Source: Blastocatellia bacterium
GTDB taxonomy: Bacteria; Acidobacteriota; Blastocatellia; DASRDY01
Assembly (NCBI GenBank): GCA_035652355.1
Contig: DASRDY010000285.1
Coordinates: forward strand, 24,300 to 88,299
Direction of reading: 5' to 3'
DNA: 64,000 nucleotides
A program made the translations under genes and the position numbers. Below are positions 45,195 through 56,924 of the stretch, in pieces. Every line of letters begins with the position of its first letter. The first letter of the stretch is position 1. Below the pieces are notes generated by a model. It did not search any database and was not told the origin of the DNA. It worked only from the letters and a program-made list of their open reading frames with translations.

Positions 45195-45719
45195 ATGAGC
45201 AGTCCATACGTTGGGGAGATCAGGATGTTTGGCGGTAGCTTCGCGCCGGTCGGCTGGGCATTGTGCCAGGGCCAGACGATTCCAATTTCGCAAAATGACA
45301 CGCTCTTTAACTTGATCGGCACTACATATGGTGGTGACGGGCAGGAAACGTTTGACCTTCCAAATCTTGCCGGCAGAGTGCCCGTTCACCAGGGACAAGG
45401 TCCTGGCATAAGTCAAAATTACGTAATCGGTGAGACGGGCGGCGTCGAAGGTGTCACTTTAACAACCCAGCAAATTCCCAACCATTCACACCTTCCCGCG
45501 TGCAATAACACCAGTGCTGGTGCCACTACGAACGGTGGGGTATGGGGAACTGCGCCGACGACCGCAAACACTTTTTACGGCCCAACTCCCGCTAACGTGG
45601 CGTTCAACGCGCAGGCGATTCAACCCCAGGGCGGCAGTCAACCGCACGAGAATATGCAGCCGTTTCTGGTTGTAACCTTCATTATCTCTTTATTTGGCAT
45701 CTTTCCGACACAGAATTAA
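45195..45719 (+). CDS. Phage-tail-collar-domain protein (MdpB-like), paralog 1
   Basis: Canonical N-terminus G(E/Q)IRMF…FAP.GWALCDGQ…I…N.ALFSLLGTTYGGDG.TF.LP.L.GRVP. Gly/Thr-rich C-terminal half ending in a conserved block …GGSQPHENMQPFLV…F. Confidence 0.75.
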   Translation: MSSPYVGEIRMFGGSFAPVGWALCQGQTIPISQNDTLFNLIGTTYGGDGQETFDLPNLAGRVPVHQGQGPGISQNYVIGETGGVEGVTLTTQQIPNHSHLPACNNTSAGATTNGGVWGTAPTTANTFYGPTPANVAFNAQAIQPQGGSQPHENMQPFLVVTFIISLFGIFPTQN

Positions 45720-45775
45720 CGGAGTTGTTCAGGTGCTGAGGCGTTTCACATATAGAGTGCAATAGGAGAAACCAA

Positions 45776-56100: not shown

Positions 56101-56924
56101 AGCAGCCACAGTACGTGATGCTGGCGGGAGACGCTTCATACGATCCGAAGGGTTATCTGGGACTGGGCAATCAGGACTTCGTGCCGACGAAGCTGATAGA
56201 CACTGCCAATATGGAGACAGCCAGTGACGGCTGGCTGGTGGATTTCAACAATGATGGCACAGAGCAGATGGCCATAGGCCGACTACCGGTACGAACAGCG
56301 GCGGATGCCACGGCAATGGTCAACAAGATCGTTGCCTACGAGCAGACAGGCACAGCGCAGACGATGGTGCTGGTGTCAGACCTTAACGATGGGCTGGACT
56401 TTGCGGCAAGCAATGCTCAGATCGGAGCAATGGCGCCGTCGCAGATGTCTGTAGTCAATATAGTGAGAGGACAGACAACAACAGATGCCAGGACGGAATT
56501 GCTGGATCAATTGTCGCAGGGTGGCCGAATAGTGAACTATGCGGGACACGGGTCGGTGAACCTGTGGCGAGGGAATCTGCTGACGAACGATGATATGTCT
56601 GTGCTAACCAACAGCAAGACATCGGCGCTGGTAGTGACAATGACCTGTCTGAACGCCTATTCACTGGATTCGAGACTGCCAAGCCTTGGAGAAGCGTTGC
56701 TGAACGTAAAACAAGGCGGAGCAGTATCGGTGTGGGCATCGACAGCAATGACCGATATGAGCAACCAGAGCGGAATGAACCAGGCGTTGTTCCGGCAGTT
56801 GCTGGGAAACAGTCAGATCACCATAGGAGACGCGATCAGAACAGCGAAGAAGACAGAGCCGAATAATGATGTAAGAAGGAGCTGGATGCTGTTCGGCGAT
56901 CCGACAATGAAGATAAAGCAGTAG
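47163..56924 (+). CDS. Giant (3,253-aa) secreted or surface protein: signal/anchor, FG-GAP/VCBS repeats, right-handed beta-helix, about 9 DUF11 tandem repeats, Ig-like module, C-terminal gingipain-like peptidase C25 domain
   Basis: N-terminal hydrophobic segment. FG-GAP-like DINRDGFPDLITG / GDFNHDGIVDVVV. A long N/G/T-rich beta-helix. Repeated PPTISKAFGA…LNGTTT.TFTITNP…GL.FSDTLP.GL modules. The C-terminus has IVNYAGHGSVNLW (catalytic His context) and LVVTMTCLNAYS (catalytic Cys context), and ends in …LFGDPTMKIKQ, as in clan CD C25 peptidases. Confidence 0.85.
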   Translation: MKTLIRRFGFTRFVVLTLCITFVLVLVKRESMVLATSLFHAATSGRTQTKDNTQAKDHTQLKVLSSVKVRPTSIAKPMIKLQDSRELSSDSASAVGTSHQSLALNSPIAGSLRPADSIYSSLRQAGARPLALATADINRDGFPDLITGYATSGGGVLMLRWANEQAYAPSDPAVLEGIRQRRFPNPFFDDGATIELPEAPDFVLTGDFNHDGIVDVVVAAKGSNAFYLLAGDGLGGFSAPTRKELPGAVTAMTAGEFGAQDGSMDLVIGVNGSGGSSVLIFDKHESIIDSTPEVRGISGSITTLALGSLDGDQFNDLAILAGGRLSVLHGQDRLEGVDSAATARLESIPLSFAPKSFSLGNFIWDREDKTEIAVMSADNQVHILARGSLDVRPFTEEEVLASRKDKEAKTIAMANGTYVAPVLSQSAANQKWAIAEDVPVESTGVGNSAPILLTTRMSSVPADDLLVKVPGGTQIQVMYKDTNQSVTRSRTSGRVMTGRTPVTLDSASEPVAVLPMRVNVDGRPGLVVMSQGNVTASVIMPEGGTTITVNSATDVIHSPGCATTGTGTCSLRDAIIFSNADTGAADTIVFSVGINPTLTISSGGAAENNAQSGDLDINRSVTITGNAPTTVSTTFDNTCGDCKVFGIDQTGLFPGETVSMSGLTIQNGVNHGNAGSICGTFFETGGGIDVFFKSSGNSFTLTNSTVTNNRTDLCVAAGQHSHGGGINIDSNNQAIVGGASAGTATLTNVTVSNNIAGLQAGGIGLLADVHNVNLTNVTITGNQSQHSDGGGVFVLHSFGGTDTFSNGSVSSNTSDGIGGGVEIDGNQVVNFTGTTFTSNTATGTGASSLGGGLAITNIGAAGVTGSTSLTNCTIDSNHANNGANSGGGGVYFNGGYSLTISACDIKNNTGGQGGGIFNGGSNSSPGSTVTINNLTLIHGNSAVTTGGGNGDGGGIANGQIGGAGTQSGTIVTKTHIFGNTAANNGGGIAVGPLTNGATFSMSFSRIVNNTSNAATNHGIEVNGTNAVASVADNWWGCSQNPIGSTQCDSAHATSGTLTVTPFLQITNSAAQNPIKVGATTTLTATVQDSNGINQSSANLDVFITSNATAGTPLPVTWSAATNSITIDANSSPLKNVGGVVQVTATYNGTNPVHHDPAAAKVDNDFTTGSHPNVVLMTVLSPPSIAKAFGSPNVAINGAPNTTTLTFTITNPNVGDGLNGLAFTDTFAPGAANIKVASPPNASTTCGGGTVTAVAGSGSVSLSGGTIGINTTCTVTVTVQGQAPDGTANNTSGNVTATDAGGLTGNTASASTLVADAPTIAKLFGAATIPLNGTTSLTFTLQNTNANTALSGVAFSDTLPAGLTVATPGNPSTNCPGGTVTATNGSSSITLSGASLATGATCTATVTVQGTTAGVKNNTASASSTTTGALTNSTGTVPITVVAPPTISKAFGAPSIPLNGTTTMTFTITNPNTTVGLSGLAFSDTFPSGLQVAATPGVVNNCNGTFTPAAGDTTVSLSGGTVGTNTSCTITVNVTGTTAGAMANITGAISSTEGGTGTTSNTATLNVFAPPTISKAFGVSTIAVNGTTSLTFTITNPASNPGALTGIGFTDSLPAGLVVATPNGLSNTCNGTVTAVAGSGSITLNNNGSITTPGTTCTIQVNVTGTTSGVKNNTTGAISSTNGGTGATSNTATLTVASPPTISKAFGAATIPLNGTTSMTFTISNPNSIGLTGLAVSDTLPAGLVVATPNNLSNSCNGSVTATSGTNSVSLSGGTIAASPATCTVSVDVQGTTAGVKSNTTTAITSTESGPGTTSNTATVTVVAPPTISKAFGAASVAVNGSTTLTFTISNPNATVSLTGLAFNDSFPSGLQVASTPGVVNNCGGTFTANANATSVSLSGGTVGTGGSSTCTITVNVTGTSAGAKANTTGAVSSTEGGTGAVSNTATLNVFAPPTISKAFGTSQVPLGGTTTLTFTITNPAANPGGLTGIGFTDTLPAGLVVGTPNNLSNTCSGTVTATAGSSSISLNNNGSIATPGNTCTIQVDVTGTTSGVKNNTTAAITSTNGGTGATSNTATLTVASPPVISKSFTPSTVGVNGFSSLSFTIQNNNNAGSLTGVGFTDNLPANLVVFTPNGLSGSCGGGTISAVAGSSTISLTNATLPASSSCTFSVAVTPETVGTFNNTTTNVTSNEAGNGNQASATLTSLNPPSIAKFFGAPRIDVGTSTSLTFQIDNFNGADSLTGVHFLDTLPSGLRVATPNGVSGNCGGVVVANAGSSTISLTNGSLAPGANCSFSVNVTAISGGTQVNVTGNVISTNGGSGNTATAQIDTCSYVVSPVSLSYPISGGTGTVTVTPNIGTCSWTAVSNDSFVHITSGAGPTTGNGSVQFTVDNSGGTPRTGTMTIATNTVVVDQTNPTAINLNSFTATKIGSATLLKWQTGMEVHNLGFNIYRDDNGQKVQINPSLIAGSALRVGMNTNVQSGFGYSWVDHSGGGSYYLEDVDLNGTSTLHGPFSATSGTADLTANSMMLSEVNSAAAQSYSLQRGYPAGVEISSGSASSADTTARTAGRSPNRPATVSNALKKQWSIASQSAVKIGVNKTGWYQVNAVDLFTAGLDTAAKPGNLQMFVGGAEVPIKVNAASSDHLSVGDTIEFYGAALDTTTANTRVYWLTSGTSAGRRVGSVTASASSGNGGSFAYTVERQDKSIYFSGLLNGEAENWFGALVNTTPATQNLTINHLDQNSADPAVIEVGLQGATGSLHNVTVMLNGTAIQNINFNGQAHQVVQIEVPQSGLVEGNNTVSLAAAAGGDISLVDYVKITYAHSYQAENNSLFTNVPANQAVSITGFTSNQIRAIDVSNPLQPLELQGAIDTSDANISTISLVTGKQSNLIAFTPDQMLSPVSITANNPSSLNQGGAGANLVIIGYRDFLQSVQPLVALKQSQGYAVAVVDVEDIYDEFSYGVHSPQAVKDFLSWSYLHWQKQPQYVMLAGDASYDPKGYLGLGNQDFVPTKLIDTANMETASDGWLVDFNNDGTEQMAIGRLPVRTAADATAMVNKIVAYEQTGTAQTMVLVSDLNDGLDFAASNAQIGAMAPSQMSVVNIVRGQTTTDARTELLDQLSQGGRIVNYAGHGSVNLWRGNLLTNDDMSVLTNSKTSALVVTMTCLNAYSLDSRLPSLGEALLNVKQGGAVSVWASTAMTDMSNQSGMNQALFRQLLGNSQITIGDAIRTAKKTEPNNDVRRSWMLFGDPTMKIKQ
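50700..54150 (+). repeat. Tandem array of about 9 DUF11-type repeats of roughly 375 bp inside the giant gene
   Basis: Recurrent nucleotide and protein blocks (ccgccgac(g/a)atcagcaaggc(a/g)ttcgg… = PPTISKAFG). This repetition also generates long spurious antisense ORFs. Confidence 0.7.

Follow-up and report, generated by a model that had tools for sequence, protein, structure and literature searches.

A collar-gene triplet within a larger gene module

We analyzed a 64,000-nucleotide stretch of a Blastocatellia bacterium (Acidobacteriota; assembly GCA_035652355.1, contig DASRDY010000285.1, positions 24,300 to 88,299 of the forward strand), hereafter called the window. The study focused on three consecutive genes for small proteins with a phage-tail-type collar domain, named subunits A, B and C, and on the gene for a giant surface protein that follows them (Table 1). 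A first-pass annotation of the window had placed three tandem collar genes and the giant gene here, and the open reading frames (ORFs) match its positions exactly, all on the plus strand. Its intergenic gaps of 57, 18 and about 340 bp were measured as 56, 17 and 341 bp, and the leader of roughly 600 bp that it described before the triplet corresponds to 627 bp without a convincing gene. It had further proposed that the collar genes and the giant gene form a module. The linkage held up, while the extent was drawn too narrowly, since a GNAT acetyltransferase gene, a DUF6916 gene and a second GNAT gene at 43043-44567 also belong to it. The module of the window spans 43043-56924 and consists of GNAT, DUF6916, GNAT, collar A, collar B, collar C and the giant surface protein.

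The three small proteins are members of Pfam Collar/COG4675 (MdpB-like). Each matches the full 57-position Collar model (PF07484), with E values of 2.7e-27, 6.9e-27 and 6.9e-26 for A, B and C and scores of 90.4-94.9 bits (cut-off 24), confirming the domain assigned to them at first pass. Pairwise identity among them is 43-47%, and their alignment contains 54 invariant columns, among them the N-terminal motif, a PxHxH motif and a C-terminal GGSQPHxN...I.LQG.FP block. Divergence is greatest in the middle segment, both among the three paralogs and among orthologs, in agreement with the earlier description of shared ends around a divergent middle. The subunits begin straight with the collar (M-S/A/G-x-P-F/Y) and have no N-terminal shaft; about 95% start with M-[S/A/G]-x-P. 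A PDB sequence search with a subunit found only T4 gp12 (E = 0.008, residues 6-77), the Pfam match to Gp10_C was weak and PHROG tail-fiber and tail-collar families aligned over residues 7-166. A protein of a Blastocatellia (Acidobacteriota) metagenome-assembled genome, annotated as ‘tail fiber protein’, matches subunit A at 100% identity, and close homologs of this subunit are named ‘microcystin-dependent protein’ by JGI. NCBIfam contains no family for the collar proteins or for DUF6916.

The 3,253-amino-acid (aa) giant starts with a hydrophobic, signal- or anchor-like segment. Pfam assigned to it FG-GAP and FG-GAP_3 domains, DUF11, nine stretches of DUF7933 (790 bits) and, at the C terminus, Peptidase_C25 (255.8 bits, cut-off 23). 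The FG-GAP, DUF11 and C25 parts of its first-pass description were thus recovered; for the beta-helix part, Pfam reported no Beta_helix segment in this protein, and a weak CSLREA N-terminal match together with visible GGG-repeat motifs makes such a region plausible. The His of the GHG motif (YAGHGS, 56538-56555) and the Cys of TMTCLNA (56637-56657) align with PorU (6za2) and gingipain R (RgpB; 1cvr), and we take these two residues to be the catalytic pair of the C25 family. The giant appears to carry a gingipain/PorU-type cysteine peptidase with an intact putative His/Cys pair. Unlike in those enzymes, the C25 domain here ends a long FG-GAP/DUF7933 protein, in an acidobacterium. An assignment as PorU, the sortase of the type IX secretion system (T9SS; NCBIfam NF033707), was rejected, because the score of 253.3 bits lies below the equivalog cut-off of 420.

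Three ancient collar clades kept together across phyla

For the census, one genome per species was scanned, giving at least 597 confirmed genome stretches, of which the best 80 were kept. The total set comprised 84 independent loci from more than ten phyla, and profile models were built locally from the window proteins. Represented among the best 80 are Acidobacteriota, Pseudomonadota, Actinomycetota, Bacteroidota, Chloroflexota and Verrucomicrobiota, as well as Bacillota (Paenibacillus), Cyanobacteria, Deinococcota (found on plasmids), a Saccharimonadales bin, Methylomirabilota and Eremiobacterota. Three clades, with 86 (A), 84 (B) and 83 (C) members, were resolved among the 256 collar ORFs; mean identity is 59-62% within and 47-50% between clades. 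Nearly every complete locus contains one member per clade, arranged in the order BAC at 51 loci, ABC at 17 (window included) and ACB at 7, with a median spacing of 14 bp between collar genes. PxHxH and GGSQPHxN are at least 90% conserved in each clade, and clade C has a conserved segment of its own, GRTGTP. Subunits A, B and C each represent a different ancient paralog clade, and the three clades are maintained in a 1:1:1 ratio across phyla. The three are not recent, diversifying paralogs, and this pattern points to a single heterotrimer rather than to three alternative tips.

Copy number was also recorded elsewhere. Two complete triplets occur in some loci (L003 9483-14415, L039 3-3329, L050 3642-11610 and L091 5693-8909); in L003, they flank GNAT, DUF6916 and sulfotransferase genes on either side, and each adjoins its own large protein. 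A search with subunit A returned 42,635 cluster representatives (50% identity) at E <= 1e-3 and 2,559 at E <= 1e-30. Homologs in phage genomes are single-copy and at most 40% identical, and plasmids and chromids carry three copies. Only 13 viral contigs were matched, five of them with triplets, one of which adjoins a GNAT gene at the contig end. The triplets in the small IMG/VR contigs L093-L095 may be of the virophage kind described below.

The first-pass annotation had interpreted the variable segments as diversifying tips and suggested examining them for positive selection. Nei-Gojobori ratios of nonsynonymous to synonymous substitution rates (dN/dS) were computed by region for close ortholog pairs and averaged. 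They amounted to about 0.02-0.17 in the core versus 0.2-0.4 in the tip (where dS was unsaturated). The tip evolves faster than the core, but at these values selection on it is relaxed and not positive across the region. Orthologous subunits remain about 80% identical across phyla with saturated synonymous sites (L081 versus L085, L087 versus L065 and L049 versus L086), in pairs joining Verrucomicrobiota with Actinomycetota and Sphingomonadales with Acidobacteriota, which follows either from extreme constraint acting on the collar base or from transfers in the distant past.

Recurrent neighbors of the triplet

Neighbors were counted at the 57 loci flanked by 4 kb or more of sequence on each side (‘well-flanked’). 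Fifty of these (88%) have a GNAT gene within 4 kb, often abutting or overlapping the last collar gene, and 44 (77%) have a DUF6916 gene within 4 kb. At 44 (77%), an ORF of 1,000 aa or longer lies on the same strand no more than 1.3 kb away; all three occur together at 33 of the 57. Across the 84 loci, GNAT, DUF6916 and giants were the only recurrent neighbors, with no other family and no phage structural gene among them. Reverse look-up from DUF6916 homologs led in three of three cases to three Collar genes, GNAT and a giant. In one of these cases, Dyadobacter fermentans, all six module genes are consecutive on one strand, and annotated records elsewhere, for example from Ruegeria sp. TM1040, Rhizobium bangladeshense and Deinococcus ficus, list three ‘tail fiber protein’ genes with a ‘GNAT family N-acetyltransferase’ and a 97-aa hypothetical protein. 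On the R. bangladeshense plasmid, the set comprises an immunoglobulin-like (Ig) protein, three collar genes, GNAT and the 97-aa DUF6916. The first three metagenome look-ups, made for close subunit A homologs, showed three Collar genes, GNAT, DUF6916 and a >3,000-aa Cadherin/Big_9/He_PIG/DUF11 protein, sometimes with a sulfotransferase or a beta-helix protein. A Deinococcus ‘ABC substrate-binding’ protein and a Ruegeria 405-aa protein, encoded between triplet and GNAT, are unrelated to each other and to the window and were discarded as candidates.

Linkage of collar genes to a giant gene in related genomes, on which the first-pass annotation had made its module depend, was evident from these counts and from the distribution of long ORFs: those of at least 1,500 aa numbered 40 of 183 near the triplet versus 1 of 465 further off in the same loci, an enrichment of about 100-fold. 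The annotation had named C25/DUF11 giants as the expected partners. A giant partner was indeed found, but not one specifically of this type, as partners were of several Ig-repeat/beta-helix kinds, and no single domain was common to all giants. In 36 of 57 giants, a Big_9/Cadherin-like domain precedes a right-handed beta-helix-like region, the two making up a shared block. The window giant represents a second class, with DUF7933/‘choice-of-anchor D’ and FG-GAP domains, which was also found in Candidatus Angelobacter, other Acidobacteriota and Ruegeria sp. TM1040; a few giants were unrelated to either class. Most triplet-linked giants elsewhere have no C25 domain in their visible parts. Several carry anchors typical of their lineage, such as the T9SS C-terminal domain in Dyadobacter, three SLH domains in Paenibacillus and RTX repeats. 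The gap between collar and giant genes in other loci ranges from 15 to 500 bp.

Gene order and type of giant are associated. DUF7933/FG-GAP giants accompany the ABC order at 12 of 17 loci, none of which has a giant of the beta-helix class, and Big_9-beta-helix giants accompany the BAC order at 34 of 51 loci, none of which has a window-like giant. Order and giant class thus co-segregate without exception in the sample, indicating that triplet and giant are inherited or transferred together. The ABC order with a DUF7933 giant occurs also in an Acidimicrobiales locus (L069) and in the Saccharimonadales bin (L024), and because the split crosses phylum borders, it suggests whole-module transfer between phyla.

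DUF6916 has a PilZ-type beta-barrel fold, as in YcgR-N/PilZ, with 6-14% sequence identity to PilZ structures. The cyclic di-GMP (c-di-GMP)-binding motifs RxxxR and D/NxSxxG are absent from the window DUF6916 and from a 25-sequence consensus, and the family has no PHROG counterpart. Neither the short DUF6916 nor GNAT carries a signal peptide. At 21 of the 61 DUF6916-positive loci, a second, longer DUF6916 gene encodes a canonical twin-arginine translocation (Tat) signal (SRRxFL plus a hydrophobic stretch). These genes lie divergently just upstream of the triplet in Acidobacteriota, Verrucomicrobiota, Actinomycetota and Methylomirabilota. The GNAT-DUF6916-GNAT order of the window recurs in the Acidobacteriota loci L015, L040, L047, L065, L075, L079 and L110.

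Fused collar proteins

Fusions were surveyed among the 150 best-scoring cluster representatives of the subunit A profile search. Their units were typed by clade-specific models, with typing regarded as confident when all score margins were at least 10 bits. Single chains of about 507-560 aa contain three complete collar units joined by linkers of 0-3 residues. Confidently typed three-unit chains comprised four A-B-C and one B-B-C, and four more typed as A-B-C at weaker margins; among confidently typed two-unit fusions, 21 of 24 join different clades. Two fused genes were recovered on independent contigs. One A-B-C chain with a signal peptide is encoded 15 bp after the gene for a 1,243-aa SLH/Big_2 protein, and the gene of a second fused chain precedes that of a 1,657-aa Ig/RTX protein. 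Larger proteins were also found in which three or six Collar domains are fused to Big_9, He_PIG, Cadherin, FG-GAP or Calx-beta arrays, the same domains that make up the neighboring giants. A signal-peptide-like N terminus was present in 53 of the 150 multi-unit representatives.

A different architecture was seen in chains of 450-560 aa (P0144, P0149, P0157, P0145 and P0155), where a signal peptide is followed by the C-terminal ‘GGxQPHxNxQPSL’ strand and then by three shortened collar units. From their layout, these chains look like a circularly permuted, tip-less pseudo-trimer.

Comparison with known collar-domain systems

In the virophage DSLV2, the products of three consecutive PF07484 genes were shown to form a 1:1:1 heterotrimer by co-purification, in which the complex measured about 55 kDa, and by negative-stain electron microscopy; these tripartite tail proteins form fibers of about 16 nm that bind Synechococcus cells, and they are encoded beside capsid genes and proposed to sit on the capsid and bind Synechococcus lipopolysaccharide (PMC12724248, J Virol 2025). 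The DSLV2/Aquatic Virophage 1 lineage resembles the module in having three consecutive, co-oriented PF07484 genes for proteins of about 170-200 aa, positional paralog clades kept across genomes and a conserved collar base with a variable distal region. It differs in being viral with capsid neighbors, whereas the triplets studied here lie on bacterial chromosomes or chromids of more than ten phyla, next to GNAT, DUF6916 and a giant and without virion genes. The likeness is one of gene arrangement and clade structure.

The phage T4 tips gp12 (PDB 1ocy), gp37 (2xgf) and the gp10 C-terminal domain offer a structural analogy. They share the Collar domain with the subunits. The subunits have conserved N- and C-terminal blocks around a variable middle, which would fit a C-terminal strand returning to the collar, and their HxH motif resembles those that bind metal on the trimer axis in gp12 and gp37, which are homotrimers. 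In contrast to the T4 tips, in which a long N-terminal shaft leads to the baseplate or fiber, the proteins studied here are shaftless, of three different chains and cellular.

Cellular, non-phage Collar proteins are already represented by RhiB of rhiABC(D), MrpB of Microcystis and COG4675 ‘MdpB’. In the rhiI-rhiABCD-rhiR arrangement, the Collar domain is present in RhiB only and the operon is flanked by quorum-sensing genes (PMC13133039). We rejected rhiABC as a known equivalent, because all three window proteins are Collar proteins and no LuxI or LuxR gene lies near the triplet in the window; within Rhizobium, the rhi operon and the R. bangladeshense triplet module are different gene sets. 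A single-copy relative in Ruegeria pomeroyi, the ‘microcystin dependent protein’ YP_165745.1, was detected in exoproteomes by mass spectrometry (PMC4949626). It consists of one Collar unit with the same motifs, FxPxGW, TTFALPDLRGR, PHTH and QENHQPSLGL...YPSRN and, unlike the triplet subunits, has its own Sec signal peptide. The accessions that follow it are ribosomal (YP_165746, L2; YP_165747, S19), from which it appears to be single-copy and not part of a triplet; it is presumably a homotrimer.

Recruitment of the Collar domain by cells as the tip of a surface filament is also exemplified by a PilV-Collar fusion, a shufflon protein of a conjugative pilus locus that is encoded by a single fused gene and diversified by DNA inversion (PMC9881135); it differs from the module in having no triplet, GNAT or DUF6916. 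In Acaryochloris marina, AM1_3688-3690 (‘phage tail collar’), AM1_3686 (acetyltransferase) and AM1_3684/3687 (hypothetical) are among the genes most induced under far-red low light in two RNA-sequencing tables, and the same lists contain the tail sheath-like AM1_0271, the baseplate assembly gene AM1_6406 and hypothetical neighbors (PMC11633204). These data are consistent with AM1_3684-3690 being one regulated unit, and the sheath-like and baseplate genes in the same lists indicate that a contractile-injection-like system is co-induced. COG4675 proteins are also present in soil metaproteomes (PMC5579227).

Other features of the window

Coordinates are collected in Table 1. Among the neighboring genes in the window, Pfam identified no phage structural gene, as the first-pass annotation had observed, and the GC content of the region is continuous with its flanks. 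PADLOC returned no defense-system match for eight module and neighbor proteins at E <= 0.01. The sulfotransferase gene upstream has counterparts adjoining the module in L003, L006, L016 and L040; since these are a minority of loci, it was not counted as a module member. The 398-aa methyltransferase-like ORF, without a match in Pfam or NCBIfam, was likewise rejected as a member, because it was seen only in copies of the same contig. GNAT ‘a’ is 172 aa long in another gene call of the same contig, and its best NCBIfam match is rimI, a weak one; the closest PDB relatives of GNAT ‘b’ are generic N-acetyltransferases and N-terminal acetyltransferases (E ~1e-7). An Rfam search of leader and spacers found no match. 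The leader contains a sigma-70-like site at 44936-44965 and no remnant of the Tat-signal DUF6916 gene that holds this position in related loci; the spacer between collar C and the giant gene contains a weak terminator-like site at 47114-47134. For both kinds of site, the numbers are at chance level.

Table 1 Features in and around the module, with Tat-signal DUF6916 genes of related loci (positions of the latter within their own loci).
Feature	Position	Strand	Remarks
Sulfotransferase_3-family gene	40559-41533	-	Pfam E = 3.7e-09; possible occasional accessory, membership in module uncertain
Methyltransferase-like ORF, 398 aa	41780-42979	-	Glycine motif VLYAGCGPYA, class-I S-adenosylmethionine-methyltransferase-like
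GNAT acetyltransferase ‘a’, 205 aa (longest ORF)	43043-43660	+	Pfam Acetyltransf_7/_1/_10
DUF6916 protein, 103 aa	43762-44073	+	Module marker gene; without signal peptide
GNAT acetyltransferase ‘b’, 159 aa	44088-44567	+	Pfam Acetyltransf_1/_7/_3; type adjoining the triplet in most loci
627-bp stretch without convincing gene	44568-45194	+	Upstream of collar A
Collar subunit A, 174 aa	45195-45719	+	HxH 45483-45491; GGSQPH 45630-45647; clade A
Collar subunit B, 164 aa	45776-46270	+	HxH 46049-46057; GGSQPH 46181-46198; clade B
Collar subunit C, 177 aa	46288-46821	+	HxH 46576-46584; GGSQPH 46732-46749; clade C
341-bp spacer, collar C to giant gene	46822-47162	+	Read from sequence
Giant surface protein, 3,253 aa	47163-56924	+	FG-GAP, 9 x DUF7933, DUF11, C-terminal Peptidase_C25
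Tat-signal DUF6916 gene, L040	9198-9623	-	
Tat-signal DUF6916 gene, L015	8084-8518	-	
Tat-signal DUF6916 gene, L065	8548-9096	-	
Tat-signal DUF6916 gene, L079	8639-9088	-	
Tat-signal DUF6916 gene, L111	9896-10369	-	
Tat-signal DUF6916 gene, L006	8588-9088	-	

Outside the module, a 158-aa ORF at 57061-57537 (plus strand), 136 bp past the giant gene, encodes a PqqD/RRE-like domain and a twin-arginine-like signal or membrane segment (GLSRRQMLKAAGVAAMIAVPVV...AQA), followed by a tail of 27 residues with six cysteines (STCLPTSAGCTISAQCCSGICSGGACA). The layout resembles that of a peptide precursor joined to the domain by which it is recognized. The window also contains three more ORFs of 1,035-1,445 aa, at 4220-8557, 11117-14224 and 17443-21102.

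Proposed role of the triplet and alternatives

We propose that A, B and C together make up a heterotrimeric binding head of the gp12/gp37 kind, acting in concert with the giant surface protein, a reading to which we assign a probability of about 0.55. That the three form one 1:1:1 heterotrimer, arranged in the manner of a T4 fiber tip, is strongly suggested by the 1:1:1 clades, the 14-bp spacing, the conserved PxHxH and GGSQPHxN motifs, the A-B-C and hetero-typed fusions, the DSLV2 precedent and the single copy in phages versus three here. With moderate confidence, this head would be the ligand-binding or recognition part of the neighboring giant, as argued by the adjacency statistics, the co-segregation of order and class, the fusions of Collar with giant-type domains and the fused trimers beside large surface proteins. 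An extracellular role is favored by the signal-bearing fusions, the T9SS- and SLH-sorted giants and the R. pomeroyi exoprotein. In such a head, the N-terminal collar and the returning C-terminal strand would intertwine at the trimer base, with the invariant PxHxH motifs placed around an axial metal site and an asymmetric distal tip made up of the poorly conserved middle segments. The whole would be the cell’s equivalent of a phage fiber, in which a small, exchangeable head for binding sits on a long stalk or adhesin, and might serve to attach the cell to surfaces, polysaccharides or other cells or to recognize them.

How such a head would reach the surface can be outlined in a more speculative manner. 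Subunits without signal peptide would fold and bind metal in the cytoplasm. GNAT might acetylate them, as their M-[S/A/G]-x-P N termini would make suitable substrates for Rim-type N-terminal acetylation, and DUF6916 might act as an adaptor. The Tat pathway exports folded, cofactor-bearing oligomers, and signal-less partners can ride along. In combination with the Tat-signal DUF6916 paralogs, these properties make it a plausible export route in the lineages that have such a gene, where the folded trimer might leave by ‘hitch-hiking’ on the paralog. Taken together, this would amount to a ‘cellular tail-fiber’ of many phyla, in which a metal-containing A-B-C head is assembled in the cytoplasm with the aid of GNAT and DUF6916, exported folded and leaderless (by Tat hitch-hiking in some lineages) and mounted non-covalently on a giant adhesin. 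We consider this full scenario less likely than not.

Several observations weigh against the binding-head model or its fuller version. No signal peptide was found in any of 120 close single-unit homologs or 256 locus-derived subunits, so that a surface location of the split form rests on analogy with the fused forms. The window contains no Tat-signal DUF6916 gene, which removes the suggested carrier there. About one-quarter of the well-flanked loci have no giant within 1.3 kb. GNAT and DUF6916 are absent beside both fused loci examined and are thus not needed for every form, and some three-unit fusions type ambiguously (AAA, BBC). An AlphaFold2 monomer of subunit A, built with 36 homologs, was too poor for fold comparison (predicted local distance difference test (pLDDT) 49.6, predicted template-modeling score (pTM) 0.26). 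In a scan of 42900-47400 for promoters and terminators, site counts equaled those of shuffled sequence and gave no evidence of co-transcription. The Acaryochloris collar genes were recognized by annotation name, and their membership in clades A, B and C is presumptive. Lastly, because the 80 genome loci are the top matches to subunit A, the percentages hold for this subfamily and not for Collar proteins at large.

The alternative that survives best retains a heterotrimer serving the giant but keeps it in the cytoplasm, where it might, for example, assist in assembly, quality control or export targeting, or regulate together with the PilZ-like DUF6916 and GNAT. The missing signal peptides on split subunits, short DUF6916 and GNAT fit such a location, as does the YcgR-N/PilZ-type regulatory barrel of DUF6916, and the lack of GNAT and DUF6916 beside two fused forms, of which one (P0200) is signal-bearing, would agree with a cytoplasm-specific job. 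Nevertheless, we regard this alternative as unlikely: fused homologs carry Sec signals or sit inside extracellular giants, the single-copy relative is a measured exoprotein and the fold family is that of a receptor-binding fiber tip with a fast-evolving distal segment. Moreover, the Tat-signal DUF6916 paralogs imply that part of the system is exported folded, and DUF6916 lacks both c-di-GMP motifs.

Rather improbable, in our estimation, are three separate homotrimers that act as alternative tips of different specificity and are grouped by tandem duplication only. Tandem duplicates of that sort would be expected to differ in number between loci and to include recent duplications within single lineages; the census revealed instead three old clades with one member each at nearly all of the 84 loci. 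Homotrimeric gp12 and gp37, the single-copy phage homologs, which are likewise, and the concentration of differences among A, B and C in the putative binding segment are all in keeping with this idea, and a few fused chains type as AAA or CCC; yet the A-B-C single chains with their 0-3-residue linkers and the mostly hetero-typed two-unit fusions run counter to it, and the virophage triplet is biochemically a heterotrimer.

Receptor-binding fiber tips can kill or block cells, as in tailocins and lectin-like bacteriocins, some GNATs protect producers and leaderless proteins can be released by lysis. From this general knowledge and the variable tip, one might imagine a released lectin-like bacteriocin or anti-competitor trimer, with GNAT and/or DUF6916 providing producer immunity or self-protection. 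We give this little chance, because identities of up to 80% between phyla and a tip dN/dS below 1 are unlike an arms-race toxin, no lysis, toxin or immunity-type gene is among the recurrent neighbors and the fusion into, and linkage with, giant adhesin-like proteins would be left unexplained. A prophage, tailocin or contractile-injection-system remnant lying beside the giant by coincidence, although suggested by the matches to phage tail fiber and collar families (PHROG; T4 gp12) and by the database name ‘tail fiber protein’, is hardly credible given that no phage structural gene lies near the window triplet or recurs in the 84 loci, that GNAT, DUF6916 and giants are the recurrent neighbors, that ORFs of at least 1,500 aa are enriched about 100-fold and giant class co-segregates with gene order, that phage homologs are single-copy and at most 40% identical and DUF6916 has no PHROG family, and that GC content is continuous with the flanks and 13 viral contigs stand against at least 597 genome stretches, all in line with the first-pass view that these genes are not prophage remnants.

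Implications for the Collar family

The triplet is best classed as a cellular, very probably heterotrimeric version of the phage/virophage fiber tip within a conserved giant-surface-protein module. Collar genes annotated ‘MdpB’ or ‘tail fiber protein’ are very common in bacterial genomes, and the literature searched contains no assigned function for the family; RhiB-type COG4675 members have been without one since their description in 1992. Our literature search also found nothing on DUF6916 or on a module of three Collar genes, GNAT and a giant, although its coverage was incomplete and an earlier description is possible. The present data turn a vague annotation into concrete hypotheses on a heterotrimeric binding head of giant surface proteins, built on a fixed A/B/C set, two marker genes and a giant adhesin-like partner, with fused versions showing which parts belong together. 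They also indicate that ‘tail fiber protein’ annotations should not serve as prophage markers. Carriers listed as isolate strains include Dyadobacter, Ruegeria sp. TM1040, Rhizobium, Caulobacter, Paenibacillus, Deinococcus and Pimelobacter. If true, the ‘cellular tail-fiber’ reading would give a function to the COG4675/MdpB family and to DUF6916 and would bear on how giant adhesins recognize their targets and how leaderless folded oligomers are delivered to the cell surface.

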